From a virus (lineage: Duplodnaviria > Heunggongvirae > Uroviricota > Caudoviricetes): 64,000 bases of DNA. The stretch lies in IMG/VR virus record IMGVR_UViG_3300043399_001190; one strand, given 5' to 3'. Shown in pieces: positions 271 through 61,233 of the stretch. Each line of letters starts with the position of its first letter. Positions within the stretch are counted from its first letter, which is position 1. The notes below the pieces were generated by a model. It was not told the DNA's origin. It saw nothing but the letters and a program-made list of their open reading frames with translations, and did not search any database. A program made the translations under genes and the position numbers.

Positions 271-346
271 GCGCCTGTGGCCAAGCGGTTAAGGCAGTGA
301 ACTCATAATTCATTGATCGGGGGTTCGAATCCCTCCGGGCGCACCA
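271..346 (+). tRNA. tRNA-Met (anticodon CAU; could alternatively be lysidine-modified tRNA-Ile2), CCA encoded
   Basis: cloverleaf read by eye: acceptor GCGCCTG/CGGGCGC, D-arm GCC..GGC, anticodon stem GTGAA/TTCAT with loop CTCATAA, T-arm GGGGG-TTCGAAT-CCCTC, discriminator A + CCA. Confidence 0.8.
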
Positions 347-347
347 C

Positions 348-815
348 TCATTTTACGTAAGTTAAAAAACCCCAAATTAATATTGCGGATAAAGAAAGGC
401 CTATCAGTACAGCAGCAATAATTTCAAGTGTCTCCTGTAGTTCTTTCCTTTTTCTTATTTTTAATTCCTTTTCTCTTCTCACTCTATGAGCCTCTTCGAT
501 TTCTAATGATCGTGAGCGTTCTTTAATTTTATTCCAAACATCAATTTTACCGGCTTGCATAAAGAGAAGTTGTAATTGCTTTTCAAATTCTTCGGCTTGA
601 TGTATAGCCATTTCTATTTCAATAGCGATAGACATGGAAGATTTTTTTTCATCCGCTTTTGATTCAGAAACGGCTTTCGTGGCCACAGATTTTGCATCAA
701 AGTACTTACTTAATACTGGTCCAAGAGATGTAACATCATCGACAGTTTTTGATACTTTTTTGATTAACGCGACAGCACTCTGAATGCCGGCTAATGCTGT
801 TACTGGATCTATCAT
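348..815 (-). CDS. coiled-coil protein with C-terminal transmembrane anchor, unknown function
   Basis: ORF track; K/E-rich helical sequence ending in hydrophobic LEIIAAVLIGLSLSAILIWGFL; stop abuts start of next gene (815/816). Confidence 0.5.
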   Translation of the reverse strand: MIDPVTALAGIQSAVALIKKVSKTVDDVTSLGPVLSKYFDAKSVATKAVSESKADEKKSSMSIAIEIEMAIHQAEEFEKQLQLLFMQAGKIDVWNKIKERSRSLEIEEAHRVRREKELKIRKRKELQETLEIIAAVLIGLSLSAILIWGFLTYVK

Positions 816-1433
816 TTACTTTGACAATGGATTATCCATCGCCTTCTGTATTTTATTATCTACATCTTTCATTAGAGAATCAACATCTTTTTTAACTTCT
901 CTTTTCATCGTATCAACTTCACGGCTTATCTCTCTTCTAGCATCAATAAGTTCTTTTCTGATACCATTCACTTCTGCTCTTGCTTTCTCCAAATCTTCAC
1001 GAATATCTTTTCTAGCTTGACGCATTTCATTTTCTGTTTCACGTTGAGCTTGTTTAACTGAACGTTCAATTTGTTCTGTTACTGATTCGTTTCTTCGAAT
1101 ATCACTCTTCAAATCGTTTTTGATATCTCTGGTATAGTCTGAAGTTTTTTGGCTGTTTTCTTCAATCACAGCTAATCTTTTATCAAACTCCGATAAATCG
1201 GGTGCAACATATTCAGCAATCTTCTTCTTCATTCCAATATAGTCTTTGTATACTTCAAACGCACCATAAAGACCACCTAGTATAGAAGAAACAATCGTAA
1301 AAGCTACCATTAATTTAGCAGGTGTGAACTCATACCCACCAATGCTGATTATAGTATCTTTACTTGCATATTTTTTGACGGCGGCTTCCGCTTCGTCAAT
1401 TTTTTTGTTTACGTCTTTAATTTGTTCTGTCAT
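816..1433 (-). CDS. membrane-anchored long coiled-coil protein, unknown function
   Basis: ORF track; hydrophobic segment LMVAFTIVSSILGGLYGAF then heptad-rich charged region; tightly packed with neighbours. Confidence 0.5.
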   Translation of the reverse strand: MTEQIKDVNKKIDEAEAAVKKYASKDTIISIGGYEFTPAKLMVAFTIVSSILGGLYGAFEVYKDYIGMKKKIAEYVAPDLSEFDKRLAVIEENSQKTSDYTRDIKNDLKSDIRRNESVTEQIERSVKQAQRETENEMRQARKDIREDLEKARAEVNGIRKELIDARREISREVDTMKREVKKDVDSLMKDVDNKIQKAMDNPLSK

Positions 1434-1434
1434 T

Positions 1435-3354
1435 TTAGTTCCTGTATTGTTGGTTGACCATTTGTTGATGTAATCTATCAGATGATAGTTGTCTTAATGC
1501 TCTAACATTATCTACAGTCACTTGATTTCTATAAATCTCCTCAGATTTGTATAACTGACCATCCTTGAGTGCTAAACTGATATAAGCGTTAAATCCTGCT
1601 GGATTAACAGCAATAGATGATATGTCAACTCCCCTAGATAATTCATTTGGTGTCACATTAGTTTTGACTGAAGAATCTCTTGATGAATTATTCGTTTGCA
1701 ATTGAGGTATTTGTGTAGCATTGATTGTGTTCATCAGAGGACTCACGCCCGTTAATTTTAACCCCTCAGTTTTAGGTAAATCTTCTTGTAATTTACTCAC
1801 ATCAAATTTGGTTTCGACATATGTTGTCTGCTGATTTGTGCTAAATGTTGTAGCTTGTTCCGTGTAAGATGGTAAAGACAAAGTGTAAATATTTTCTTGT
1901 CTTGTTGATGTTGGTTGTGTAGACACTATTACAAGTTGTTTTGTTGGTTGCAATCCAAATTCTTGCATCTTATTTGCAGAATTTAAACCTAGATTAGTTG
2001 TTGATGCGTTGTTACTTTGAGATGGATTTGTGGCAAACATTGAAGCAGCTTGTGAAGCAGATTGACTTTGGTTAATTGTTGCCGCACTGATAGAAATACT
2101 ATCTTTTTGTGTCTTGTCACTTATTGCTTGTGCTTGTTCGACCGCTTGTTGTACAGTGCTTGTTTCTAGATTACCAATGCGTGTCTGTTCATTTCTTACA
2201 ATTGACAATATTTGACTCACTGAAGGTCCAGAAGTTTTTGCAGCACTTCCAGATACGGTAACTTCACCAACTCTAGGTTGTGGGTTTGTAGCACTAGGTA
2301 TTGGTGTTGAGCTAGAAGTAGAATTTGTTATAGTTACTGGTGCTGAAGCACTGGTGGTAGAAGTTGTTTGTGTTGGTTGTGTCTGTGTAACTTCTGTAGG
2401 AGTAGATGTAGAAGTGGGTGCTACTGTCGTTGTTGTCGGAGCTGCAAGAGGTTCTGAGGTTGTAAAAGTGTTGACAGTAGTAACTGTTTCTGTGGGAGTT
2501 GGAATTTTAGGCGTAGGTGGTGGAGTAGGTGAACTATTTACACCCAATTCACATCTCTTGTACACGCCACCAAGTGGATCTTTACCCCAAGCTCCATTAC
2601 TACAACTATAGGTACCTGCTTGCAACTCTTTATAATCCCACGTATCGTTGGCACCATATCGAATGACAGCAGCTTTTGATAATGTGAATTCGCCGTTTTC
2701 GTCAGCCACTTTATCCCAAGAAGAGAATGTTGGTAAAGGTGGTGGAGCTACTGTGTATTGTAATCTTACATCTATATTCCTGATTTGTGGTCCGTAGTAT
2801 CCTGCCCAAAAACGATCATCTTTACCTGTAAAACTTACATTTAGATTGCCTAAATTTGAAGGTGCATATTGTGTGCCAAAATTTTGGGTGCCAGACATTG
2901 TTGTCCAACCACTTGTAGTTTGTGGCATATTGTAATTATAGCTTTGAACAGTTGCACCTAAATTGTTCGTTACACTTATATTTCCAGTCAGTGTACCTCT
3001 ACTGTAATCTTGATTGAAATATTGCCAAGAATATTTAAAACCAGATACCTGTATGCCTGTTCCCGCATTAGCGAGTGCAAAATTTATAGCAGTGTTGTAA
3101 GCCACCGTTTGTTGCGTATAACCAAACACAAAAGTTCCAGTGCTTGAATTATATGCTGGCATATTGCCACCAGACAAGCCTCCTCCACCAGTATTTAAAT
3201 TTATAAATCCATTCCAATTGAATGGTGCGCCTGGCGGAGGAGGATTCAGTGTTGTATATACTATATTGTCAGTAAGTTCTTGACTTTTACTTGAAGAGGT
3301 TGTAAACAACCAAGCCAAGCAAACTACCAAGCCCAATATTTTTGTAAATTTCAT
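1435..3354 (-). CDS. secreted/surface protein: signal peptide, N-terminal Gly/Asn/Thr-rich domain, Thr/Pro-rich mucin-like linker, C-terminal domain
   Basis: N-term MKFTKILGLVVCLAWLFTTSSS signal peptide; RBS GGAAGT before ATG at 3354; linker SSPTPPPTPKIPTPTETVTT...; start overlaps 3' end of upstream gene by 68 nt in another frame. Confidence 0.55.
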   Translation of the reverse strand: MKFTKILGLVVCLAWLFTTSSSKSQELTDNIVYTTLNPPPPGAPFNWNGFINLNTGGGGLSGGNMPAYNSSTGTFVFGYTQQTVAYNTAINFALANAGTGIQVSGFKYSWQYFNQDYSRGTLTGNISVTNNLGATVQSYNYNMPQTTSGWTTMSGTQNFGTQYAPSNLGNLNVSFTGKDDRFWAGYYGPQIRNIDVRLQYTVAPPPLPTFSSWDKVADENGEFTLSKAAVIRYGANDTWDYKELQAGTYSCSNGAWGKDPLGGVYKRCELGVNSSPTPPPTPKIPTPTETVTTVNTFTTSEPLAAPTTTTVAPTSTSTPTEVTQTQPTQTTSTTSASAPVTITNSTSSSTPIPSATNPQPRVGEVTVSGSAAKTSGPSVSQILSIVRNEQTRIGNLETSTVQQAVEQAQAISDKTQKDSISISAATINQSQSASQAASMFATNPSQSNNASTTNLGLNSANKMQEFGLQPTKQLVIVSTQPTSTRQENIYTLSLPSYTEQATTFSTNQQTTYVETKFDVSKLQEDLPKTEGLKLTGVSPLMNTINATQIPQLQTNNSSRDSSVKTNVTPNELSRGVDISSIAVNPAGFNAYISLALKDGQLYKSEEIYRNQVTVDNVRALRQLSSDRLHQQMVNQQYRN

Positions 3355-4426
3355 TTTTTACTTCCGGTGCGTGTTTAGGAATTTTGTCTGGATTTTGTTC
3401 CCAGAACATTTTCGCTTGTTCTCCTATCTTACCCTCATAAGGGCAAGGAGTACCAGCGGCCATCATAGCATCAAACACGCGACGATCTTGGCACATGGTT
3501 GCAACAGCGGCAACCTTCATACCCATATCGTACAGAGTTTTACTAAGCTTTAAACGTTCACAGTTTAAATCTCTCACTGTTCCACCAGAACTAACACCAA
3601 AAATTTGTGTTTGTACAGCACCACTAGATCCTGTTGTACATAAGTCATTGTTTCCACCACTCATCATTGTTGGAGCAATTGCAGTAGGAGGTGGCTGAAT
3701 AACCTTCTGAGTGATTTCCGAAGTATTCAAATTGTTGTTGGTCATTGAACCACTTTGAATATTCTGATTCACATTGTTATTTGTTGAAGAACTTGTACTT
3801 GTATTATTATTGTTGTTTACATTACTGCTTGTACTTGAACTCACATTATTATTATTAAATGTCTGAGTACCAGAATTAATATTTGTATTCACGTTGTTAT
3901 TGGTGCTGGTACTGGTATTATTTGTATTCAGTGTTTGTGTACCAGAATTTACATTATAATTTGTATTACTGTTTGTACTTGTGCTTGTACTATTATTGTT
4001 GAATGTTTGAGTGCCCGAATTAATTTGATTCACGGTACTTGTGCTTGTGTTGACATTATTATTATTAAATGTCTGAGTACCAGAATTCACATTGTTATTG
4101 TTATATGTCATGGTACCTGAATTGACATTATTATTATTAAATGTCTGAGTACCAGAATTCACATTATTGTTATTGTTTGTATAAGTTACGGAACCACTCA
4201 TAACATTATTGTTGTTATTTGTTATAGTTCCATTTGTTGTAACCGTACTTGTACTAGTGCTAGTACTGTTAGTTGTGCTGGAGTTTGTAGTGTTTACTGT
4301 GCTGGTGCTAGTGGAATTATTATTAGTATCCACCAAAGTTGTCGAGTCATAGGTTGTTTGAGCAACACTAATTGATGTAATCATAGCAAAAAGCACCAAA
4401 AGCGGTGTCTTTTTGAATGACATTTT
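3287..4426 (-). CDS. secreted Asn/Ser/Thr-rich tandem-repeat protein with Cys-containing C-terminal domain
   Basis: track ORF 3287..4600 but likely start is internal MSFKKTPLLVLFAMITSISVA (signal peptide) at 4426 preceded by AAAGAGGTAAAA RBS; repeats VNSGTQTFNNNN. Confidence 0.5.
   Translation of the reverse strand, partial: KMSFKKTPLLVLFAMITSISVAQTTYDSTTLVDTNNNSTSTSTVNTTNSSTTNSTSTSTSTVTTNGTITNNNNNVMSGSVTYTNNNNNVNSGTQTFNNNNVNSGTMTYNNNNVNSGTQTFNNNNVNTSTSTVNQINSGTQTFNNNSTSTSTNSNTNYNVNSGTQTLNTNNTSTSTNNNVNTNINSGTQTFNNNNVSSSTSSNVNNNNNTSTSSSTNNNVNQNIQSGSMTNNNLNTSEITQKVIQPPPTAIAPTMMSGGNNDLCTTGSSGAVQTQIFGVSSGGTVRDLNCERLKLSKTLYDMGMKVAAVATMCQDRRVFDAMMAAGTPCPYEGKIGEQAKMFWEQNPDKIPKHAPEVKNEIYKNIGLGSLLGLVVYNLFK
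3700..4330. repeat. imperfect tandem DNA repeats (~60-66 nt units) inside the N/S/T-rich protein gene
   Basis: near-identical copies of attattattaaatgtctgagtaccagaattcacatt at ~3838, ~4059, ~4125 and related units. Confidence 0.7.
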
Positions 4427-4487: not shown

Positions 4488-4511
4488 TTATTTATGTCCT
4501 GGAGAAATAAA

Positions 4512-4823
4512 ATGGCAAATATTAGAGGAATTAAATTGGTAACGGGTGAGGAAGTTATTTCCGAGGTAATCATCCAGCCAGATGGTAGATTCTTACTCAA
4601 GAATCCTGTGCAGCTAAGGATGGTTCCACCACAGATTGCAGGTAGCCAGCCATCTATGGGCTTTGTTCCTTTCCCAGCCTTCGGCAGTCAAGGTGAAAAT
4701 ATATTTGTAGAACCACTACATATAGTGTACAATTACACTCCTGACGAACAAATCGTTTCAAATTACAACCAAATGTTCGGTGCAGGCATCATCACCCCAT
4801 CTAAACAAATTATAACTGGATAA
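4512..4823 (+). CDS. hypothetical protein upstream of DNA polymerase
   Basis: track ORF 4494..4823; start moved to MANIRG (GGAGA RBS); stop overlaps pol start (TAATG). Confidence 0.45.
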   Translation: MANIRGIKLVTGEEVISEVIIQPDGRFLLKNPVQLRMVPPQIAGSQPSMGFVPFPAFGSQGENIFVEPLHIVYNYTPDEQIVSNYNQMFGAGIITPSKQIITG

Positions 4824-7354
4824 TGAATTTTTACACAAACGTACAATGTATTGGCAACAACATCTTTTACCGTGGTGTTCTCGACGGTAAAAGAATCAAA
4901 ACTAAGATACCTTATCAGCCAACACTTTATGAAAAATCGAGAAGTGTGAAAAACTTCACATCACTTGAGGGCGACTATCTTATGCCCATCAAGTTTGGTT
5001 CAATTCGTGAAGCAAAAGAATACCTGAGACAGTTTGAAAATGTCTCGGGTAAAACCATTTATGGTCAAAACAGATTCGAATATGCATTTATCGGTGAACA
5101 ACATAAAGGTATGGTTGAATGGGATTTCGATCAAGTAATGATTGGCGTACTTGATATTGAGGTCGGCTCAGAAAATGGTTTCCCTGATCCTTATGAAGCA
5201 AATGAACCAATTACAGCCATTGCATTGAAATATGTTGGCGGTCACATGTTTGTTTGGGGTTGCGGAGACTATAACACAAAAGGTGATGAAAGATATCTGA
5301 AGTGTAAAGATGAATATCAACTGTTGAAGCTTTTCTTGAAATTCTGGCAAGAAAAATGTCCAGATGCACTGACTGGTTGGAACACGAAGTTCTTCGACGT
5401 GCCTTATTTGGTGAACCGCATTCGTAAAATTCTCGGTGAAGATGAAGCTAAAAAGCTTTCTCCTTGGAATATGATATCTCAAAGAGAAGCCTTTGTTATG
5501 AACCGAAAACTTGTGGTTTACGACTTGGTTGGTATCGGTGATTTTGACTACATGGAACTATACAAGTGGTATGCTCCTGGTGGTAAATCACAAGAATCGT
5601 ATCGACTAGACAACATCGCAAATGTTGAAATTGGTGAAAAGAAACTCGACTATTCTGAATATGATTCTCTACATCAACTTTACAAACTAGACTATCAAAA
5701 GTTTATTGAATATAACATCAAAGACGTTGAACTGATTCTTCGACTTGATGATAAACTGAAGTTGCTGGAACTTGGTTTGACTCTTGCTTATGATACCAAA
5801 ACAAATTACGATGATGTATTTGCACAAACACGCATGTGGGATGCACTGACATACAATCATTTGATGGAGCGTAAAATTGTTGTTCCACCAAGAATCATTA
5901 AAGAGAAAGATGCCGCTTTCGAAGGTGCTTACGTTAAAGAACCTCAAGTTGGTCAACACGAATGGGTTGCAAGTTTTGACTTGAATTCTCTGTATCCTCA
6001 CTTGATGATGCAATACAATATTTCACCAGAAACGTTGATTGAACCTGAAGATTATAATGAAGCAATGAGAGAAGTTCTTTCACAAGGTGTTTCTGTTGAA
6101 AAACTCTTGAACTGTCAAGTTGACACCTCAAGTTTGGTCAATGTAACTCTCACACCGAACGGTCAATTTTTCCGCACAGATATTCAAGGCTTTCTTCCGA
6201 AGATGATGGAAGAAATGTATGAAGATCGTAAGAAATTTAAAAAGTTGATGATTCAGGCTAAGAAAGAATACGAGGTAGAAAAAGATGCATCGAAAAAATA
6301 CGAAATTGAAAAGCGTATTGCCAGATACAACAATCTGCAACTCGCAAAAAAGGTCTCTCTCAATTCTGCTTATGGCGCTTTGGGTTCTCAGTATTTTAGA
6401 TTTTACGACCTACGGATGGCTTTGGGTGTCACTACTGCTGGCCAGTTATCTATTCGTTGGATTGAAAATGCTCTCAACAAATACATGAACGGTCTTTTGA
6501 AGACTGAAACTGATTATGTGATTGCATCGGATACTGATTCGATTTACTTGCGCCTTGGTGAATTGGTTAAAAAAGTGTATGGTACAAAAGATGGTATCTC
6601 TTTACCGAAAGAGAAAATTATCGACTTCATGGACAAAGTTTGTGAAGATAAAATTCAACCATTCATTGATAAGTCTTATAAAGAGTTGGCTGATTATGTA
6701 CATGCATTTGCACAAAAGATGCAAATGAAACGTGAAGCTTTGGCCGACAAAGGTATTTGGACTGCCAAAAAGCGTTACATCATGCATGTGTATGACAATG
6801 AGGGTGTTCGTTACTCTGAACCTGAAATGAAAGTCATGGGTTTGGAAATGATTAAGTCATCCACTCCTGCACCCGTGCGCGAGAAGATGAAAGATGCACT
6901 TCAAATTATGATGAAAGGTACAGAAAGTGATATTCACAATTTCATATCTTCATTCAAGGATGAATTTAAAAATCTTGCTGTCGAAGATATTTCTTTCCCG
7001 AGAGGTATCAACGGATTGAAAGAGTATGGTGATCGAACCACAATTTACAAAAAAGGTACACCAATTCATGTGAAAGGTGCATTACTATATAATTATTATC
7101 TACTTGAAAAAGATTTGTCAAAAAAATATCCACTGATCCAAGAAGGTGAGAAAATCAAATTTACCTATTTGAAGAAACCCAACCCCTTCAAAGATACCGT
7201 AATCTCATTTCCTGGTAGACTTCCTCCGGAATTTGACATTCAAGAATTTATCGATTATGATATGCAATTCGAAAAAACTTTCCTTGATCCGATTAAGGTT
7301 ATTTTGGATTGTATGAATTGGACAACAGAGAGAAAAAATACTCTCTTCGATTGA
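4823..7354 (+). CDS. 43: DNA polymerase, family B (T4 gp43-like) with 3'-5' exonuclease domain
   Basis: 843 aa; motifs FDLNSLYPHLM (motif A DxxSLYPS) and IASDTDSIYL (motif C YGDTDS), exo motif region; T4-like synteny with uvsX/41. Confidence 0.92.
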   Translation: MNFYTNVQCIGNNIFYRGVLDGKRIKTKIPYQPTLYEKSRSVKNFTSLEGDYLMPIKFGSIREAKEYLRQFENVSGKTIYGQNRFEYAFIGEQHKGMVEWDFDQVMIGVLDIEVGSENGFPDPYEANEPITAIALKYVGGHMFVWGCGDYNTKGDERYLKCKDEYQLLKLFLKFWQEKCPDALTGWNTKFFDVPYLVNRIRKILGEDEAKKLSPWNMISQREAFVMNRKLVVYDLVGIGDFDYMELYKWYAPGGKSQESYRLDNIANVEIGEKKLDYSEYDSLHQLYKLDYQKFIEYNIKDVELILRLDDKLKLLELGLTLAYDTKTNYDDVFAQTRMWDALTYNHLMERKIVVPPRIIKEKDAAFEGAYVKEPQVGQHEWVASFDLNSLYPHLMMQYNISPETLIEPEDYNEAMREVLSQGVSVEKLLNCQVDTSSLVNVTLTPNGQFFRTDIQGFLPKMMEEMYEDRKKFKKLMIQAKKEYEVEKDASKKYEIEKRIARYNNLQLAKKVSLNSAYGALGSQYFRFYDLRMALGVTTAGQLSIRWIENALNKYMNGLLKTETDYVIASDTDSIYLRLGELVKKVYGTKDGISLPKEKIIDFMDKVCEDKIQPFIDKSYKELADYVHAFAQKMQMKREALADKGIWTAKKRYIMHVYDNEGVRYSEPEMKVMGLEMIKSSTPAPVREKMKDALQIMMKGTESDIHNFISSFKDEFKNLAVEDISFPRGINGLKEYGDRTTIYKKGTPIHVKGALLYNYYLLEKDLSKKYPLIQEGEKIKFTYLKKPNPFKDTVISFPGRLPPEFDIQEFIDYDMQFEKTFLDPIKVILDCMNWTTERKNTLFD

Positions 7355-8737: not shown

Positions 8738-10094
8738 GGAATTTTTGAGGAAAGTTTTACCTTTCCTCAAAGAGGATTATTTCAATGATCGAACAGAAAA
8801 AGTTATTTTTAAAGAAATAACTGAGTTCACAAATCAATATAATAATTCACCAACAACGGAAGCTTTGGGTTTATCTCTGAAAGATAAGCGCAATCTAACA
8901 AGCGATGAGGTTGAAAAATGTGATGCCGTTCTAAAAGATTTGGCAATTGCACCGGTCGAAAAAACACAAATTCAATGGTTGATTGATAAGACGGAAAAAT
9001 TTTGCCAAGAAAAGGCAATTTACAATGCAGTTCTGGGTTCAATTTCTATTCTAGACGGTAAAGATAAAAGTCAAGACAAAGGTTCTATTCCTAAAATTTT
9101 GTCAGATGCACTTGCTGTCAGTTTCGATTCGTCGGTCGGTCATGATTATTTGGAAGATTATGATGAGCGTTATGATTTTTATCATCGAAAAGAGGAAAGA
9201 ATTCCTTTTGATTTGGAATACTTCAATAAGATAACCAAGGGTGGATTGCCTGCGAAGACTTTGAATATTGCTCTTGCTGGTACTGGTGTTGGTAAATCTC
9301 TTTTCATGTGTCATGTTGCCGCAGGTTGTATGACACAAGGTAAAAATGTATTGTATATTACACTTGAAATGGCTGAAGAGAAAATTGCCGAGAGGATTGA
9401 TGCGAACCTACTGAATGTTTCCGTCGATGATCTTATGCAATTGACTAAAGATATGTATGATAAAAAAGTCAAGCGTGTCAAAGAAATGACGACAGGTAAA
9501 CTTATTATCAAAGAGTATCCAACAGCCTCGGCTTCGTCCATACATTTTAGGACACTTTTAAATGAACTCAACCTCAAAAGGAACTTTGTTCCGGACATTA
9601 TTTTCATTGACTATCTTAATATTTGTTGTAGTGCAAGAATCAAAGCCGGAGCAAACGTTAATTCTTACACCTACGTTAAAGCCATCGCCGAAGAATTGCG
9701 AGGTCTTGCGGTTGAATTCGGAGTACCAATTGTTTCTGCGACACAAACAACAAGAAGTGGTTATACTTCTTCAGACCCAGGATTGGAAGACACAAGTGAA
9801 TCTTTTGGTTTGCCAGCAACCGCAGATTTGATGTTTGCACTCATTTCTTCCGAAGAAATGGAAGCACTCAATCAAATTATGGTCAAGCAGTTGAAGAATC
9901 GTTATTCTGATCCAACACAATACAAAAGATTCGTCTTGGGTATTGACAGGTCGAAAATGAGACTATATGATGTTGAACAGGATGCACAATATGGTATTGC
10001 GGATTCTGGTAAACAAGTGCAGGACAAACCTTTAAACACATTTGGAATGAGGGAAATGAAGCCGAAAAATAAATTTGCAGGAATTAAAGTATAA
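8691..10094 (+). CDS. 41: replicative DNA helicase (T4 gp41, DnaB family)
   Basis: strong similarity to T4 gp41 recalled from memory (VSFDSSVGHDYLEDYDERY, Walker A AGTGVGKS, LYITLEMAEE, KNFVPDIIFIDYL). Confidence 0.93.
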   Translation: MMRLEQTILKNLIHNEEFLRKVLPFLKEDYFNDRTEKVIFKEITEFTNQYNNSPTTEALGLSLKDKRNLTSDEVEKCDAVLKDLAIAPVEKTQIQWLIDKTEKFCQEKAIYNAVLGSISILDGKDKSQDKGSIPKILSDALAVSFDSSVGHDYLEDYDERYDFYHRKEERIPFDLEYFNKITKGGLPAKTLNIALAGTGVGKSLFMCHVAAGCMTQGKNVLYITLEMAEEKIAERIDANLLNVSVDDLMQLTKDMYDKKVKRVKEMTTGKLIIKEYPTASASSIHFRTLLNELNLKRNFVPDIIFIDYLNICCSARIKAGANVNSYTYVKAIAEELRGLAVEFGVPIVSATQTTRSGYTSSDPGLEDTSESFGLPATADLMFALISSEEMEALNQIMVKQLKNRYSDPTQYKRFVLGIDRSKMRLYDVEQDAQYGIADSGKQVQDKPLNTFGMREMKPKNKFAGIKV

Positions 10095-21863: not shown

Positions 21864-23722
21864 TAATGAGTAAAGCAGGCAATCTCATTAAAAACATGGT
21901 GAAAGCGAAAAAAGAATCTGTCATGGGTAAATTGGCCAACGGTGACGATCCGATGGAACCATGGTCGAAAAGATTCGATGCTCCAATCAAAGAAGAAGAA
22001 TTGAACGAAGATACCTGGTTATATCGTTACATACGTTCTCTTGGTTGGGACCCGGAACACATGACATTTGCAGAACGTTCAAAATACGCTCGTTCGAATG
22101 CATTTAAACACTGGAAACAGTCACACATGAATCGTAGACCGGGTGAAACTGCCACAATGGAGAAACCAGTTCAGGAAGAAATTCTCGACGAAGCTGGAAC
22201 TGGCTTGCTCATGTCATATATTAAATCCAAGGGTCTTGATCCAAGAACAATGGACGGAAATCAAAAAGCCGCATATTCTAAATCCAGTGAATTTAGAATG
22301 TTTAAAATGCGTCATATGAAAGAAGTTTCGGGGATGGGTGAACGTGGTGATGATTGGAATGAAGAAAAGAAACCTGTGAAAGAGGCTGTCGATAAAGCAG
22401 ACACTGTTACAGTAGACATTCCATTGATGATTCGTCTTCTTGAATATGCTCGTGAAGATGCCAAAACCGATATGGATCTACACAAAGTTGTGGAAAATTT
22501 AATCAATATGCGTTCAGAAGGAACACTTTCAATGGATCATTACGATTCTATCGTAAATGTTAAGTCCATGAAAGAAGAGGTTGAACAAATTGATGAACTT
22601 GATAAAGCGACACTGACCAGCTATGCAACGAAAGCGAGAGCAGATGCTGAAAAGCTAACTAAGCAAGGTGATGCTGCATCAAAAAGAAGTTCCACGAAAT
22701 CTTTACAGACTGCTTATGACAAATATAAAAAAGCAGCAAAACGCACGATGGGTGCCGGTAGTGCAGAGTCGAAAGCTCGTCTAAAAGAAGACGAGCAATT
22801 AGACGAACTAAAAAAGATTCCTGATAATATGGATGCTGACGACCATATTACCCGTGAAGATTTGCGTCAGTGGTTTAGTAAAACACACCCAGAGGGTGAT
22901 TGGAAAAGAATCAATTCAAAAGGTGAAGTTGCAGGTCCTTGTGCCAGAGAGCCTGGTGAACCAAAACCTAAGTGCATGTCAAAAGAGAAACGCGCACAAT
23001 TGAGCAAGAGTGAACGTGCGGCCGCAGTTGCAGCAAAACGTAAACATGATCCTGTTGCTGATAGACCAGGTAAAGGCGGTAAGCCTATTAACGTTTCAAA
23101 TTACGGTAAAGGTAAACTGAGTGAAGAAGGTGTCGATGAAGCATGTTGGGATACACACAAACAAGAGGGAATGAAAAAGAAGGGCGATAGAATGGTCCCA
23201 AATTGTGTTCCTAAAAATGAATCTGTCGAACAAATTGATGAAAAAAACAAACCAACAAATCCAGGTTTGTGGTCTAGAGCAAAAGCAATGGCTCGTTCCA
23301 AGTTTGATGTTTACCCATCAGCTTATGCAAATGGTTGGGCAGCAAAATGGTACAAATCCAAAGGCGGCGGATGGAAGTCGGTGAAAGAAGATATTGTTCA
23401 AGAAGGTATTTACGGTATCGAGGATTCACCTTTGTCTGCGACAAATTCTGTTAAAGCTATGGAATCTTCTAACAGAAAAAAAGAAATGTCGAAATCTGCT
23501 AGAATGATTAAATCAATCTACAAAAAGAAAAATGTCAAAGAGACAATGTACGATTGGGAAAAGACTGAAAAGGGTGGTAAAGTTGTTGATGAGCCAACCG
23601 CAAAAGTTATTATGAAAGGTGGTACAACTATGACTGGAAAACCACGAGACACTATCGAAATAGAGCCTGTCTTAAAAACAAAACTTAACAGTCCGGCTGG
23701 TATGAAATCTAGCTTGCAATAA
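21860..23722 (+). CDS. 620-aa K/E-rich protein with internal duplications and three (V)EQIDE motifs (candidate scaffold/internal protein)
   Basis: repeats YIRSLGWDPEHMT..HWKQSHM / YIKSKGLDPRTMD..MFKMRHM; EEVEQIDELDK, ESVEQIDEKNK. Confidence 0.5.
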   Translation: MIMSKAGNLIKNMVKAKKESVMGKLANGDDPMEPWSKRFDAPIKEEELNEDTWLYRYIRSLGWDPEHMTFAERSKYARSNAFKHWKQSHMNRRPGETATMEKPVQEEILDEAGTGLLMSYIKSKGLDPRTMDGNQKAAYSKSSEFRMFKMRHMKEVSGMGERGDDWNEEKKPVKEAVDKADTVTVDIPLMIRLLEYAREDAKTDMDLHKVVENLINMRSEGTLSMDHYDSIVNVKSMKEEVEQIDELDKATLTSYATKARADAEKLTKQGDAASKRSSTKSLQTAYDKYKKAAKRTMGAGSAESKARLKEDEQLDELKKIPDNMDADDHITREDLRQWFSKTHPEGDWKRINSKGEVAGPCAREPGEPKPKCMSKEKRAQLSKSERAAAVAAKRKHDPVADRPGKGGKPINVSNYGKGKLSEEGVDEACWDTHKQEGMKKKGDRMVPNCVPKNESVEQIDEKNKPTNPGLWSRAKAMARSKFDVYPSAYANGWAAKWYKSKGGGWKSVKEDIVQEGIYGIEDSPLSATNSVKAMESSNRKKEMSKSARMIKSIYKKKNVKETMYDWEKTEKGGKVVDEPTAKVIMKGGTTMTGKPRDTIEIEPVLKTKLNSPAGMKSSLQ

Positions 23723-24908: not shown

Positions 24909-25331
24909 ATGTGGATATTACAGTGGTTACCTGACTGGTTTTTTTATGCTCTATTTTTCGTGGGCTTGTTGGGAATCGCTACTACATTTTTATTGAGATT
25001 CATACCTTTCTTTTATTTGTATAAGAATACAATTCAAGCTTTTTCTTTGTTATTGATTGTTATTGGTGTTTATATGTCAGGAGCAATCAGAGAAAAAGCT
25101 GCTTGGGAAATGAGAGTGAAAGAAATGGAGATAAAGCTTGCTGAAGCTCAAGCAGAATCTTCGAAAGTTAATACTGAGATAATTGAAAAAACTATAACAA
25201 AAACACAAATCGTTAAAGAGAGAGGTAACGATATTGTTAAATATATTGATCGTGAAGTGGTGAAATATGATAATGAATGTAAGATACCAAAAGAGTTCAT
25301 TGAAGCACATAACAAAGCGACAACACGATGA
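24909..25331 (+). CDS. membrane protein with N-terminal TM segments and periplasmic coiled coil (i-spanin-like)
   Basis: hydrophobic FYALFFVGLLGIATTFLL and AFSLLLIVIGVYMSGAI, then charged helical region; start overlaps stop of upstream gene, coupled to next gene (ATGA). Confidence 0.4.
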   Translation: MWILQWLPDWFFYALFFVGLLGIATTFLLRFIPFFYLYKNTIQAFSLLLIVIGVYMSGAIREKAAWEMRVKEMEIKLAEAQAESSKVNTEIIEKTITKTQIVKERGNDIVKYIDREVVKYDNECKIPKEFIEAHNKATTR

Positions 25332-25594
25332 AATATTTGTTGATTATTCTTACATTATTAACGGTGGGTTGTTCTACCACCGTGCCGGTCAAAGCAAAAT
25401 TTCCTGACCCTCCAGGAAAATTGATGACCGAAAGATGCCCACAATTAAAAACGTTGGCTGATGATTCGAAGTTAAGTGATGTTTCTAAAACAATCACGAT
25501 GAATTACACCGAATATTATATCTGTGCTGTCAAAGTGGATTCCTGGATCGAATGGTATGACAGTCAGAAAAAAATATTCGAAAGTGTAAAATAA
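25328..25594 (+). CDS. small lipoprotein (o-spanin-like)
   Basis: MKYLLIILTLLTVGC lipobox-like signal; 88 aa; overlaps neighbours. Confidence 0.45.
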   Translation: MKYLLIILTLLTVGCSTTVPVKAKFPDPPGKLMTERCPQLKTLADDSKLSDVSKTITMNYTEYYICAVKVDSWIEWYDSQKKIFESVK

Positions 25595-26217
25595 TGGAAT
25601 TAACAAAAGAACAACTAAAACAATTACTTCCAAAGAATCCATATATTGATTACTGGCACAATGCATTGTCGCAACTATTGCCAGATTATGAAATCAATAC
25701 ACCACAGAGAATAGCTGCATTTGTTGCACAATGTTCACATGAGTCTGGTGGATTCATGGTACTTAAAGAGAACTTGAACTATCGCTGGCAATCTTTGAGA
25801 AAGTTATTTCCAAAATACTTCCCAACAGATGAATTGGCACAAAAATATGCATCAATGCCAAACAAACAGGAAGCAATAGCCAATAGAATTTATGCAAATA
25901 GAATGGGAAATGGTCCAGAAGAATCTGGCGATGGTTACAGATATTGTGGTCGCGGTCTTATTCAACTAACAGGTCGTCAAAACTATACCTGGTTTGCAGC
26001 ATCACTTGAAATTACACCTGAAGAAGCAACCGAATATCTTGGAACATTTGAAGGTGCAGCACAATCTGCATGTTGGTTTTGGGAAACAAATAAATTAAAT
26101 CAATGGGCAGATAAAGGTGATATTGTTACACTAACGAAAAGAATCAATGGTGGAACAATAGGTCTAGAAGATCGTATTAAACATTACGAACATGCTCTAC
26201 ACGTTTTAGGTGTATAA
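25594..26217 (+). CDS. endolysin, glycoside hydrolase family 19 (chitinase-like)
   Basis: RIAAFVAQCSHESGGF ... YCGRGLIQLTGRQNY motifs typical of GH19 lysins. Confidence 0.75.
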   Translation: MELTKEQLKQLLPKNPYIDYWHNALSQLLPDYEINTPQRIAAFVAQCSHESGGFMVLKENLNYRWQSLRKLFPKYFPTDELAQKYASMPNKQEAIANRIYANRMGNGPEESGDGYRYCGRGLIQLTGRQNYTWFAASLEITPEEATEYLGTFEGAAQSACWFWETNKLNQWADKGDIVTLTKRINGGTIGLEDRIKHYEHALHVLGV

Positions 26218-26507: not shown

Positions 26508-26933
26508 ATGTATACAGAAGAACAATTGATGGCGCGATTGAAATTTTTCATTGGCGTCTGCTTGGCACTGACATTAACAGGTATCGTTTTTGTTGTACTT
26601 TATTCAATTATATTTGTTACGCAGCCTCTGAATGCAATAAGCCCAATCGATCAGAAATTTTTTGAGTTGATTGTTCCTATTGCAACATTTTTAACAGGCA
26701 CACTTTCCGGCATCATGTTAGCGGGAAATGATAAAGATTTGAGAGCAAAAGCTTTAGAGTCGGCGACAAAACCTCCGCCACCGCCTGCGCCAGTCCCAGT
26801 GCAACCAGTAAACACAATGAAGCGTGAGCCAGTTTTCACTGAAACGTTTGCACCAACAAATACTCAACCACAAATTGTTACCGGTTTCGGTGGAAAACCT
26901 GCGCCGGCTCCAGCATTCCAACCGGAAATTTAA
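26508..26933 (+). CDS. TM protein with Pro-rich segment (PPPPAPVPVQP)
   Basis: track ORF 26406..26933; start moved to MYTEEQ after upstream stop; one TM FFIGVCLALTLTGIVFVVLY. Confidence 0.4.
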   Translation: MYTEEQLMARLKFFIGVCLALTLTGIVFVVLYSIIFVTQPLNAISPIDQKFFELIVPIATFLTGTLSGIMLAGNDKDLRAKALESATKPPPPPAPVPVQPVNTMKREPVFTETFAPTNTQPQIVTGFGGKPAPAPAFQPEI

Positions 26934-49388: not shown

Positions 49389-50183
49389 ATGAAACGTTTT
49401 GCTCTCTCTGCTCTTGTTGCTGCTTCGGTTCTTGCCACGGGTTGCACCCGAATTGAGACTGGTGAGGTTGGTGTCCGCGTTGGTTTTGACAAGCAGGTCA
49501 AACCTGGTGAACTCCTGCCTGGCTCTTTTAACCAGGTTCTGGTTGGTGACGTTCTGACGTTCCCCGTCAAGGACGTTAACGTGGTGCTGGAGAATATGAC
49601 GCCAGTGGCTAAGGACAATTCCACGATGGCTGACCTTGATGCCGTGGTTGTTTATAATATTAACCAAAATCAAGTTGCGGAACTTTATAGTTCCAAGAAT
49701 AAGAGTTTTCATGCTGAAAGCAAAGGTGATGTTTATCTGATGTACAATTACATTGTGCAAAATGCACGTAATGCAATTTACAAGGCTGCACGTAAATACG
49801 AAGCCCTTGATATGGCAGATAATCGTACTGAAATGGAAAACTTCATTAAAGATGAAATTATCCGTAATCTTGCCGAGGAGAAGCTTGACGGTAGTTTGAA
49901 TATTACTCAAGTTATGATTCGTAATGTAGTTCCCGCACCAAGTGTTGTAGCATCGGCCAATGAATTGGTGCGTTCTAAGAATGAACTGAAACAAAAAGAA
50001 GTTGAAGTTAAAACGGCTGAAGCTGAATCTCGGCGTATGGCTGCACTAGCCAATAACTCTGCTAGTTCTATTGCATTTATGAATGCACAGGCTGCACTGA
50101 ATATCTCCGAAGGTATTAAGAATGGTAAGGTACAAACGATTGTCGTTCCAAGTAATATGACCAGTCTGATGCTGCCGAAGTAA
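49389..50183 (+). CDS. SPFH/band-7 (HflC/prohibitin-like) lipoprotein
   Basis: MKRFALSALVAASVLATGC lipobox; SPFH-like core then coiled coil; GC-shifted codon use; track ORF 49365 trimmed. Confidence 0.6.
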   Translation: MKRFALSALVAASVLATGCTRIETGEVGVRVGFDKQVKPGELLPGSFNQVLVGDVLTFPVKDVNVVLENMTPVAKDNSTMADLDAVVVYNINQNQVAELYSSKNKSFHAESKGDVYLMYNYIVQNARNAIYKAARKYEALDMADNRTEMENFIKDEIIRNLAEEKLDGSLNITQVMIRNVVPAPSVVASANELVRSKNELKQKEVEVKTAEAESRRMAALANNSASSIAFMNAQAALNISEGIKNGKVQTIVVPSNMTSLMLPK

Positions 50184-61096: not shown

Positions 61097-61233
61097 TTTG
61101 ACCTCACGAAATTAGTGTACCTCCTCTATTTATGTTTTTTTGTGCGGTTGCAACATGAAATTTCCTATATAATAAGTGTAGTGACGCTGTTGTGGTTACT
61201 ACTAATCAACTTGCTTATTTTAAGGAGAAAAAA

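Follow-up and report, generated by a model that had tools for sequence, protein, structure and literature searches.

A conserved four-gene module of a T4-like phage and other phages of aquatic bacteria, with a predicted lectin-type arm and a possible role in envelope disruption at lysis

The 64,000-nt stretch of DNA of the IMG/VR virus record IMGVR_UViG_3300043399_001190 (referred to here, in its whole length, as the window) belongs to a T4-like myovirus whose gp43-type DNA polymerase (4823–7354) displays a protein identity of only ~50% with the cyanomyophage polymerases and for which no close phage record was found in the database comparison. Between a tRNA-Met (271–346, plus strand) and the divergently transcribed polymerase block, four co-directional open reading frames (ORFs) occupy the minus strand from 348 to 4423; in the order of transcription these are P4 (3287–4423, 378 aa), P3 (1435–3354, 639 aa), P2 (816–1433, 205 aa) and P1 (348–815, 155 aa). 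Their packing is that of an operon: the ATG of P4 (4423–4421) is directly preceded by a Shine-Dalgarno-like aagaaagagg, P4 (whose stop ends at 3287) overlaps P3 (ATG at 3354) by 68 nt in a different frame, a single nucleotide separates the stop of P3 from the ATG of P2, no nucleotide separates the stop of P2 from the ATG of P1 (TAAATG) and the P1 stop codon lies one base from the tRNA-Met. A preliminary description of the window had reported, next to a tRNA, a block at 348–4426 encoding low-complexity proteins with signal peptides as well as membrane proteins of a T4-like phage, two of the genes overlapping by 68 nt in different frames; the ORFs, the nature of their products, the tRNA neighbor and the overlap are all borne out, the upstream end alone having been placed one codon too far. 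What had been missed is that the four genes constitute one conserved mobile module and that P3 has a lectin-type head, as predicted from sequence and model. The block is most likely a single late operon for a four-protein module that goes into the envelope of the infected cell. None of the four proteins reaches the threshold of a Pfam or NCBIfam family and, across the Pfam, NCBIfam and PDB sequence searches, the FBA motif of P3 described below is the only significant match.

In P4 a signal peptide is followed by an N/S/T-rich region with repeats, a domain with four cysteines and a hydrophobic C-terminal tail. Judging by sequence, its N-terminus, MSFKKTPLLVLFAMITSISVA|Q, has the n-h-c layout of a signal peptide, and this layout is kept in the homologues. 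The N/S/T-rich region (3689–4354, residues 24–245; like all features of the module, on the minus strand) is a low-complexity stretch of 220 residues with 32% N, 23% T and 17% S, and contains eight copies of the motif [VI][NMQ]SG[TS][QMV]T[FYLN] (3725–4216, residues 74–222) that lie 12–40 aa apart, three of them in strict 12-residue tandem. The tandem repeats that had been noticed at the DNA level are confirmed by Tandem Repeats Finder as diverged units with periods of 36 nt (4053–4174, 3.4 copies, 82% matches) and 72 nt (3831–4165, 4.7 copies, 68% matches). The motif is retained in the relatives (NVNSGTMTYNNNN, NVNTGDMTNRNIN) despite the varying length of the region. Among the relatives the low-complexity part expands and contracts greatly, with P4 ranging from 155 to 526 aa. 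The suggestion of phase variation in the preliminary description finds no support: the DNA copies are diverged (68–82% matches) with many synonymous differences and, because the repeat units are in-frame multiples of 3, slippage would not switch P4 expression.

The 4-Cys domain of P4 (3365–3688, residues about 246–353) has the consensus QPPPTAxAPxMxSGGNxDLC...NCERLKLSKTL...GMKVAAVxxMCQD...GTPCP, its four Cys columns being invariant in the alignment of the family (A2). P4 corresponds to phrog_20531 (E 9e-15; function unknown), no relative was found in Pfam, NCBIfam or PDB, and the AlphaFold2 (AF2) model of the Cys domain is poor, with a predicted local distance difference test score (pLDDT) of 55. 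The protein ends in a hydrophobic tail of 16 residues, IGLGSLLGLVVYNLFK (3290–3337), whose DNA doubles, in another frame, as the code for the signal peptide of P3; hydrophobic tails are retained in the relatives (e.g., ...LLGAIVFKLF and ...ALAFGVAF). An in-phase A_AAA_AAT was considered as the site of a programmed frameshift joining P4 to P3 in the window and was discarded, the −1 frame leading to an immediate stop and to no fusion. As to the tail in the isolates, the P4-like gp202 of the pelagimyophage Mosig (EXVC030M; locus L001, ~1985–2075) contains an in-phase A_AAA_AAG heptamer, and reading on in the −1 frame gives back the conserved hydrophobic tail (...LWITIPLMLFFGVAF), which is missing from the annotated frame; this reflects either a programmed −1 frameshift, by which a soluble and an anchored isoform would arise, or an error in the sequencing of the homopolymer. 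In HTVC023P (L003, ~6464–6530) a small ORF of its own, MIWLTIMIIGAAYAIY..., encodes the hydrophobic tail; its ATG overlaps the stop of gp45 (ATGA), and the ORF in turn overlaps the start of gp46.

P3 begins with MKFTKILGLVVCLAWLFTTSSS|K, a second N-terminus of predicted n-h-c signal-peptide layout that is likewise kept in the homologues, and continues with a beta-sandwich head, a small Cys-containing domain, a T/P stalk, an S/Q/A-rich region and a conserved C-terminus (...EEIYRNQVTVDNVRALRQLSSDRLHQQMVNQQYRN). The head (2740–3222, residues about 45–205) is classified as an FBA/galactose-binding-like beta-sandwich. Its sequence matches the sugar-binding domains of FBXO6/FBXO44 (E 3.5e-4) via GKDDRFWAGYYGPQIRN; Pfam, including the FBA family PF04300, reports no family for P3 at E up to 1. 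For the head, AF2 gives a model of pLDDT 72, with blocks over model residues ~81–150 mostly >90, whose top PDB matches in a Foldseek search are the sugar-binding domains of Fbs2/Fbs1 (E 8e-5 to 8e-4, probability 1.0). Among the viral models of BFVD the P3 orthologues come first, followed, as nearest named folds, by F5/8 type C, galactose-binding, carbohydrate-binding module (CBM) and tail-protein domains. Taken from sequence and model together, the head is predicted to be a lectin-type beta-sandwich with an FBA-like C-terminal strand motif, GxDxxFWAGxYGPxxxN, that it shares with the FBA domain of the F-box proteins Fbs1/Fbs2 (PF04300), a relative of the CBM/galactose-binding-like sandwiches. 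What separates P3 from Fbs1/Fbs2 is the modest TM-score (0.35–0.46) and the context, namely the bacterial periplasm and not the cytosolic pathway of endoplasmic-reticulum-associated degradation, glycan binding being predicted from the fold.

The second, small domain of P3 (2545–2709, residues 216–270, ...YSCSNGAWGKDPLGGVYKRC) was found by tblastn to match tail, adhesion or minor structural proteins from phages of Lactococcus and Streptococcus, the best matches having 49–53% identity over ~55 aa and E down to 3e-9. The stalk that follows (2320–2538, residues 273–345), with 37% T and 18% P, is the mucin-like T/P linker of the preliminary description, which was right in this respect; in the relatives the stalks at this position are acidic (Mosig, HTVC115P, HTVC023P) or Pro-rich (L009). 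Many relatives of P3 (P0246, P0248, P0249, P0256 and P0260 in alignment A4) carry, between head and stalk, tandem Cys-rich repeats of the type CPGYxxAYxTQQCxxNPLY that are not present in the window P3.

P2 has an N-proximal transmembrane (TM) segment (1251–1313, residues 41–61) with an aromatic juxtamembrane motif, GGLYGAFEVYKDY, and, beyond it, ~140 K/E/D/R-rich residues of helix type with 2 Pro and 1 Gly. The protein ends with NPLSK, and NPL (825–833) is the only invariant motif among 18 diverse members of the family, in which the TM-plus-helix layout is also retained; the homologue in phage HTVC115P, gp49, is 43% identical (E 7e-36). P2 is predicted to sit in the inner membrane in a type-II-like orientation (N-in, C-out), with its long helical part in the periplasm. 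Two of the 18 members match Rz-like spanin phrogs (phrog_739, E 6.8e-5, and phrog_7686, E 1.3e-3), the window P2 itself matching the Rz-like phrog_312 at no better than E 0.77, and the family profile weakly matches residues 8–130 of influenza HA2 and coronavirus S2 HR1 (E ~2e-3), the two-component spanins having been likened to class I fusion proteins (Kongari et al. 2018, PMC6139136). P1 starts with MIDPVTALAG..., has a charged helical middle and ends with a TM segment (354–422, residues about 132–154); it corresponds to phrog_32327 (E 3e-11; function unknown) and its family is found in 28 related loci, mostly after P2.

The motif CATAAATA (4489–4496, minus strand) is located 73 nt before the ATG of P4, within the intergenic region that separates the divergent genes; it resembles a T4-type late promoter and places a −10-like element of the TATAAATA/NATAAATA type shortly upstream of the first gene of the module. 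The T4/cyanomyophage late-promoter element NATAAATA occurs at 8 sites in the 64 kb, i.e., at 10090, 12748, 20398, 23718 and 27150 on the plus strand and at 61134, 12664 and 4496 on the minus strand. Six of the eight are located 15–75 nt upstream of an ORF start and, by sequence and position, have the appearance of functional late promoters of the T4 type; the unit to which the lysis genes belong is headed by the site at 23718. Among the relatives, the motif is present within 150 nt upstream of P4 in 42 of 78, compared with an expectation of 0.026 per 150 nt (~2 loci), and because of this ~20-fold enrichment we infer that the module is transcribed late.

The distribution of the module is very broad. 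The P4 domain was found in at least 8000 metagenomic protein clusters and at least 598 IMG/VR stretches, as well as in the Pelagibacter podoviruses HTVC115P, HTVC023P, HTVC033P and Baldr, the siphovirus-like HTVC202P, the pelagimyophage Mosig, the Roseobacter phages CRP-810 and CRP-207 and the Ralstonia phage RSP15. The isolates in which the module was recognized are Mosig, HTVC115P, HTVC023P, HTVC033P, CRP-810, CRP-207, Baldr and HTVC202P, HTVC027P being without it; in these genomes the gene next after P4 always specifies a protein in which a signal peptide, a beta-rich head and a stalk of low complexity are combined with a related C-terminus, and this P3-like gene is followed by one for a TM-plus-coiled-coil protein ending with NPL. 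Synteny was also counted in 62 metagenomic loci with enough downstream sequence, of which 57 have a P3-like ORF, 50 an NPL-ended P2-like ORF and 42 a P3/P4 overlap of at least 30 nt (mode 65 nt; 59–86 nt in most relatives). Since dozens of unrelated contigs display this gene order, the P4-P3-P2(-P1) arrangement goes beyond chance. It spans myo-, podo- and siphovirus-like aquatic phages, both marine and freshwater, and its flanks differ among close relatives (e.g., in L009 the genes for ClpX, HSP20 and ClpS are on one side and those for a desaturase and PstS on the other); therefore, the module moves as a block. Its parts are conserved to different extents: where the P4 domain is 73–84% identical to that of the window, P2 is 50–89% and the P3 head mostly 33–40% identical, and a word-indexed search retrieved 20 proteins for the P3 head vs at least 8000 for P4. 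Nothing points to the eukaryote-like glycosylation context that had initially been entertained, all relatives being phages of aquatic bacteria.

No prior description of the module was found in the literature, including the spanin and lysis literature on these phages, and in public records its proteins are labeled hypothetical, “OmpA family”, “tonB” or “lysozyme”, without support; cases in point are the names “OmpA family” (CRP-810 gp53) and “tonB” (MW202481) given to P4-like and P3-like proteins. The annotated starts of HTVC115P gp53 (L002, ~5400–5480) and CRP-207 gp74 (L006, ~2465–2510) are probably too far downstream, the upstream ATGs giving proper signal peptides and recreating the overlap with the preceding P4-like gene. 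Matches in bacterial “genomes” are mostly mis-binned phage contigs, a stand-alone homologue being present on a few large alphaproteobacterial contigs only. This cellular P4 homologue (L120, 6560–7600 of a 1.3-Mb alphaproteobacterial contig; also L121–L124) combines a signal peptide and an S/N-rich region with the Cys domain, to which further Cys repeats are added at the C-terminus; it is located among transporter genes without P3 or P2 partners and suggests a cellular origin of the P4 domain.

A functional clue is provided by the lysis genes. In the window the lysis cassette is on the plus strand and comprises genes for an i-spanin-like protein (24909–25331), an o-spanin lipoprotein of the Rz1 type (25328–25594; 4-nt overlap, lipobox LTVGC, four Rz-like spanin PHROG matches), an endolysin (25594–26217; phrog_181, E 3e-73) that we read as chitinase/GH19-like and a Pro-rich protein with two TM segments (26529–26933; phrog_25359, function unknown) that could be a holin. 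The cassette proteins, a small seed set, were used as probes to find the lysis genes of the relatives. In five loci (L015, L032, L044, L049 and L064) the module lies within the cassette, the P4 start being within ~20 nt of the endolysin stop. The order in these loci is i-spanin, o-spanin, endolysin and P4, which is followed, on contigs that extend far enough, by P3, P2 and a homologue of ORF 26529–26933 of the window. Other arrangements, with GH19-type, GH24 or M15 enzymes, are seen in L084, L078/80/82, L093, L112 and L116, and in or beside the lysis cassettes of many relatives the module adjoins four unrelated endolysin families. As to several unrelated phages, the P2-like gp48 gene of HTVC023P is directly followed by a Peptidase_M15_3 gene, in Mosig a GTA_holin_3TM gene is immediately upstream of the module, in HTVC033P an Amidase_2 gene is three genes away and in MW202481 a holin-like gene and a GH24 lysozyme gene are downstream. 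An endolysin gene is found within 3 kb of the module in at least 10 of the 36 complete loci having at least 3 kb on both sides, roughly 5–8% being expected; the linkage to lysis is enriched, not universal. The “lysozyme” neighbors in CRP-810 (gp51, L004 7273–7695) and CRP-207 (gp73, L006 3292–3873) were rejected as evidence of such linkage, these being P2-like, TM-plus-coiled-coil proteins that end with NPL and have no enzyme domain.

A scan for lipobox ORFs that recovered the window o-spanin (25328–25594) found none in or around the module of the window, Mosig, HTVC115P, HTVC023P and HTVC033P, and the signals of P4 and P3 are predicted to be of the signal-peptidase-I type, with no Cys at the cleavage site. 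Furthermore, no credible lipobox ORF was found in the whole HTVC023P genome; for this reason the module is the only spanin-like candidate in this phage, in which it may represent the sole outer-membrane step. In the roseophages CRP-810 (L004, 5669–5929) and CRP-207 (L006, 1728–1940) unannotated small lipoprotein ORFs are found just upstream of the P4-like gene; they carry the second half of the P4 Cys domain, with the C-x22-C spacing kept, and adjoin a short TM-plus-coiled-coil protein, the CRP-810 ORF following gp54. The window o-spanin, tried as a relative of the P4 domain, turned out not to be related (E 1.2).

Taken together, these data suggest that the module forms a late periplasm-spanning complex acting in envelope disruption/release at lysis, a reading to which we would assign a probability of about 0.4. 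The complex would work with holin, endolysin and spanin or, in some phages, in their place. P2, the tail of P4 and P1 would constitute its inner-membrane base; the conserved C-terminus of P3 and/or the Cys domain of P4 would dock on the NPL end of P2, much as the o-spanins dock on the C-termini of the i-spanins; P3 would be the long arm whose lectin head reaches a glycan, be it peptidoglycan or a variable outer-envelope polysaccharide; and, after removal of the wall by the endolysin, the complex could help to breach or peel the outer layers. We infer all of these features, be it the contacts between the proteins, their assembly, the glycan targeted or the outcome for the envelope. A bolder version, in which the module would be a lipoprotein-independent envelope-spanning lysis machinery and a third outer-layer disruptor beside spanins and disruptin, with a glycan-binding arm replacing the lipid anchor and supplying the missing outer-membrane step of the HTVC023P-type pelagiphages, appears doubtful.

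Several considerations weigh against a role in lysis. The window phage has a complete canonical i-spanin/o-spanin/endolysin set from which the module is 21 kb away and on the opposite strand, and outer-membrane disruption in this phage has no obvious need of it. With the limited seed set, ~70% of the complete metagenomic loci have no lysis gene within 3 kb, and in Baldr and HTVC202P the module is just upstream of terL, far from the endolysin gene; the flanks of lysis cassettes are, moreover, common insertion sites for accessory genes. No member of the module is a lipoprotein, so that the outer-membrane anchor that defines the spanins is missing. The likeness of P2 to spanins and fusion proteins is weak and could reflect its coiled-coil composition, the P4 domain gave no usable model and the contacts among P2, P3 and P4 are predictions only. 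A replacement of the spanins by the module was considered for the window and rejected in view of the canonical i-spanin, o-spanin and endolysin genes at 24.9–26.2 kb; because a canonical Rz/Rz1-type pair is present, the module is in this phage an accessory.

A lysis role would bear on how phages breach the outer envelope of SAR11 and other streamlined aquatic bacteria; HTVC023P, for instance, is without a credible lipoprotein spanin, and the HTVC023P-type pelagiphages are the most abundant marine podoviruses. If correct, the proposed function would amount to a new mechanism and would provide a marker for lysis modules in environmental phages; the module is very widespread and repeatedly wired into lysis cassettes, yet its members are annotated as hypothetical or mis-annotated.

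Among the closest known systems are the two-component spanins (lambda Rz/Rz1, T4 PseT.3/PseT.2; PMC6139136). P2 has the predicted layout of an i-spanin, with an N-in TM segment followed by a helical periplasmic domain, and its conserved extreme C-terminus is a possible docking site; the module is late, judging by the motif, is often in a lysis cassette and has overlapping genes; two P2 members match Rz-like phrogs, possibly through coiled-coil composition, and roseophages have a small lipoprotein with half of the P4 Cys domain. On the other hand, the module has no lipoprotein partner (the signals of P4 and P3 being of the signal-peptidase-I type), P2 has no periplasmic Cys, the 3–4 proteins amount to ~1400 aa as opposed to ~200, the module features a lectin head and long stalks, and the genome that carries it also has a bona fide Rz/Rz1-type pair. 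With the unimolecular spanin T1 gp11, P4 shares the end-to-end topology, i.e., an export signal, a non-helical low-complexity part (as predicted) and a C-terminal hydrophobic segment, but its signal has no lipobox, its tail is short (~16 residues) and it has an extra disulfide-type domain and is always accompanied by P3 and P2. The TonB/TolA tethers likewise join a membrane-anchored base, through a long spacer that is Pro-rich, acidic or Thr-rich, to a globular end domain that could extend to the wall or outer membrane, and one P3 homologue is annotated “tonB”; however, no similarity was detected in sequence or domains, P3 has the opposite polarity, with an N-terminal head and no anchor of its own, and there are no ExbBD or TolQR partners.

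The alternative that survives best, although we deem it unlikely, is that the fast-evolving P3 head, held by its membrane partners, binds a variable host surface or periplasmic glycan (O-antigen, capsule or lipid-linked precursors) and thereby brings about receptor masking, superinfection exclusion or protection of the progeny, infected cells or lysis debris ceasing to adsorb phage. The fold of the head is a carbohydrate-binding one that also occurs at the tips of phage tail proteins, the second domain of P3 matches tail and adhesion proteins of Gram-positive phages and, in CRP-810 and HTVC115P, the module follows tail-fiber-like genes. Furthermore, no part of the module diverges more than the head, which is 33–40% identical where P4 is 73–84% identical and yields in the word-indexed search the 20 proteins mentioned above, as opposed to the at least 8000 of P4. 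Exclusion functions are typically early, however, whereas a late-promoter motif precedes the module, the genomic linkage is with lysis genes and not with receptor-binding genes, no route across the outer membrane is evident and no recognizable lectin head was found in the P3 equivalents of the roseophages. The host-surface modification or superinfection exclusion contemplated in the preliminary description is possible but, given the late-promoter motif and the lysis linkage, less favored than a complex active at lysis. If the module did mask receptors, it would represent a late, glycan-directed exclusion system.

A function in the timing of lysis, akin to that of an antiholin or to lysis inhibition, with P2, P3 and P4 sensing the status of the wall or periplasm and signaling to the holin via P1, is clearly improbable. 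T4 RI and RIII act on the holin T. In L015, L032, L044 and L064 the module is between the endolysin gene and that of the 2-TM holin candidate, in L015 with P1 just upstream of the latter, P1 is a small membrane protein with a predicted cytoplasmic helical part, and the co-occurrence of canonical spanins leaves regulation as a free role. Yet the module bears no similarity to known antiholins and would make a very large regulator, many loci have P1 at another place or not at all, and the 2-TM protein is only a candidate holin (phrog_25359, function unknown).

Very little likelihood can be attributed to an adhesion or aggregation factor of the curli “sibling capture” type, in which the Asn-rich repeats of P4 would form amyloid-like fibers and P3 would be an adhesin on the infected cell. 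The short N/Q-rich repeats are conserved at the protein level, and pelagiphages carry a curli type VIII secretion system (T8SS) module (Wittmers et al. 2022; Zaragoza-Solas et al. 2020; PMC9599517, PMC7029224) that is likewise multi-gene, exported and envelope-directed, is common to SAR11 myo- and podoviruses and appears to be horizontally transferred as a unit. A curli relationship, prompted by these repeats and by this literature, was examined and rejected, no Curlin, CsgG or CsgF Pfam signature being present in P1–P4 or in 51 P4-family members. The published curli clusters differ in gene content and the papers that describe them (PMC9599517, PMC7029224) make no mention of a P4-P3-P2 module. 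The latter has no CsgG, CsgF, CsgA/B, FecR or adenylate cyclase and no outer-membrane secretion channel, P4 has a hydrophobic tail, and P2 and P1 are predicted inner-membrane proteins. That the products are instead virion (tail-fiber or decoration) proteins with uncleaved N-terminal hydrophobic helices can be practically dismissed, despite the late expression expected from the promoter motif, the occurrence of the P3 head fold and second domain in tail proteins and the position of the HTVC023P module among structural genes, tailed-phage virions being assembled in the cytoplasm and the module encoding two proteins with typical signal peptides (canonical n-h-c, with an AxA-type cleavage site conserved across homologues) and two with TM anchors. 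Neither does the Hoc-like virion adhesion proposed earlier find support, the predicted cleavable signal peptides sending P3 and P4 out of the cytoplasm.

A few further observations concern the surroundings of the module and the rest of the window. In T4-like relatives the module is often followed, downstream of P2 or P1, by a gene for a membrane protein of 181–182 aa (L009, L020, L033–L035), which in L009 is listed as PF14235 (DUF4337) and which is absent from the window. Signal peptides had been considered unusual in a lytic T4-like phage, but this was an overstatement: T4 exports RI, Sp and its o-spanin, and the window encodes, in addition to the o-spanin at 25328–25594, a lipoprotein of 264 aa (49389–50183, plus strand) with the lipobox LATGC and a match to phrog_200, “lipoprotein” (E 1e-32). 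Finally, a small ORF (4494–4823, plus strand) directly upstream of the DNA polymerase start, which it overlaps, matches phrog_527 (E 8e-19) and, weakly, DUF6561, a domain annotated at the same position in cyanophage Sf-CH1b.

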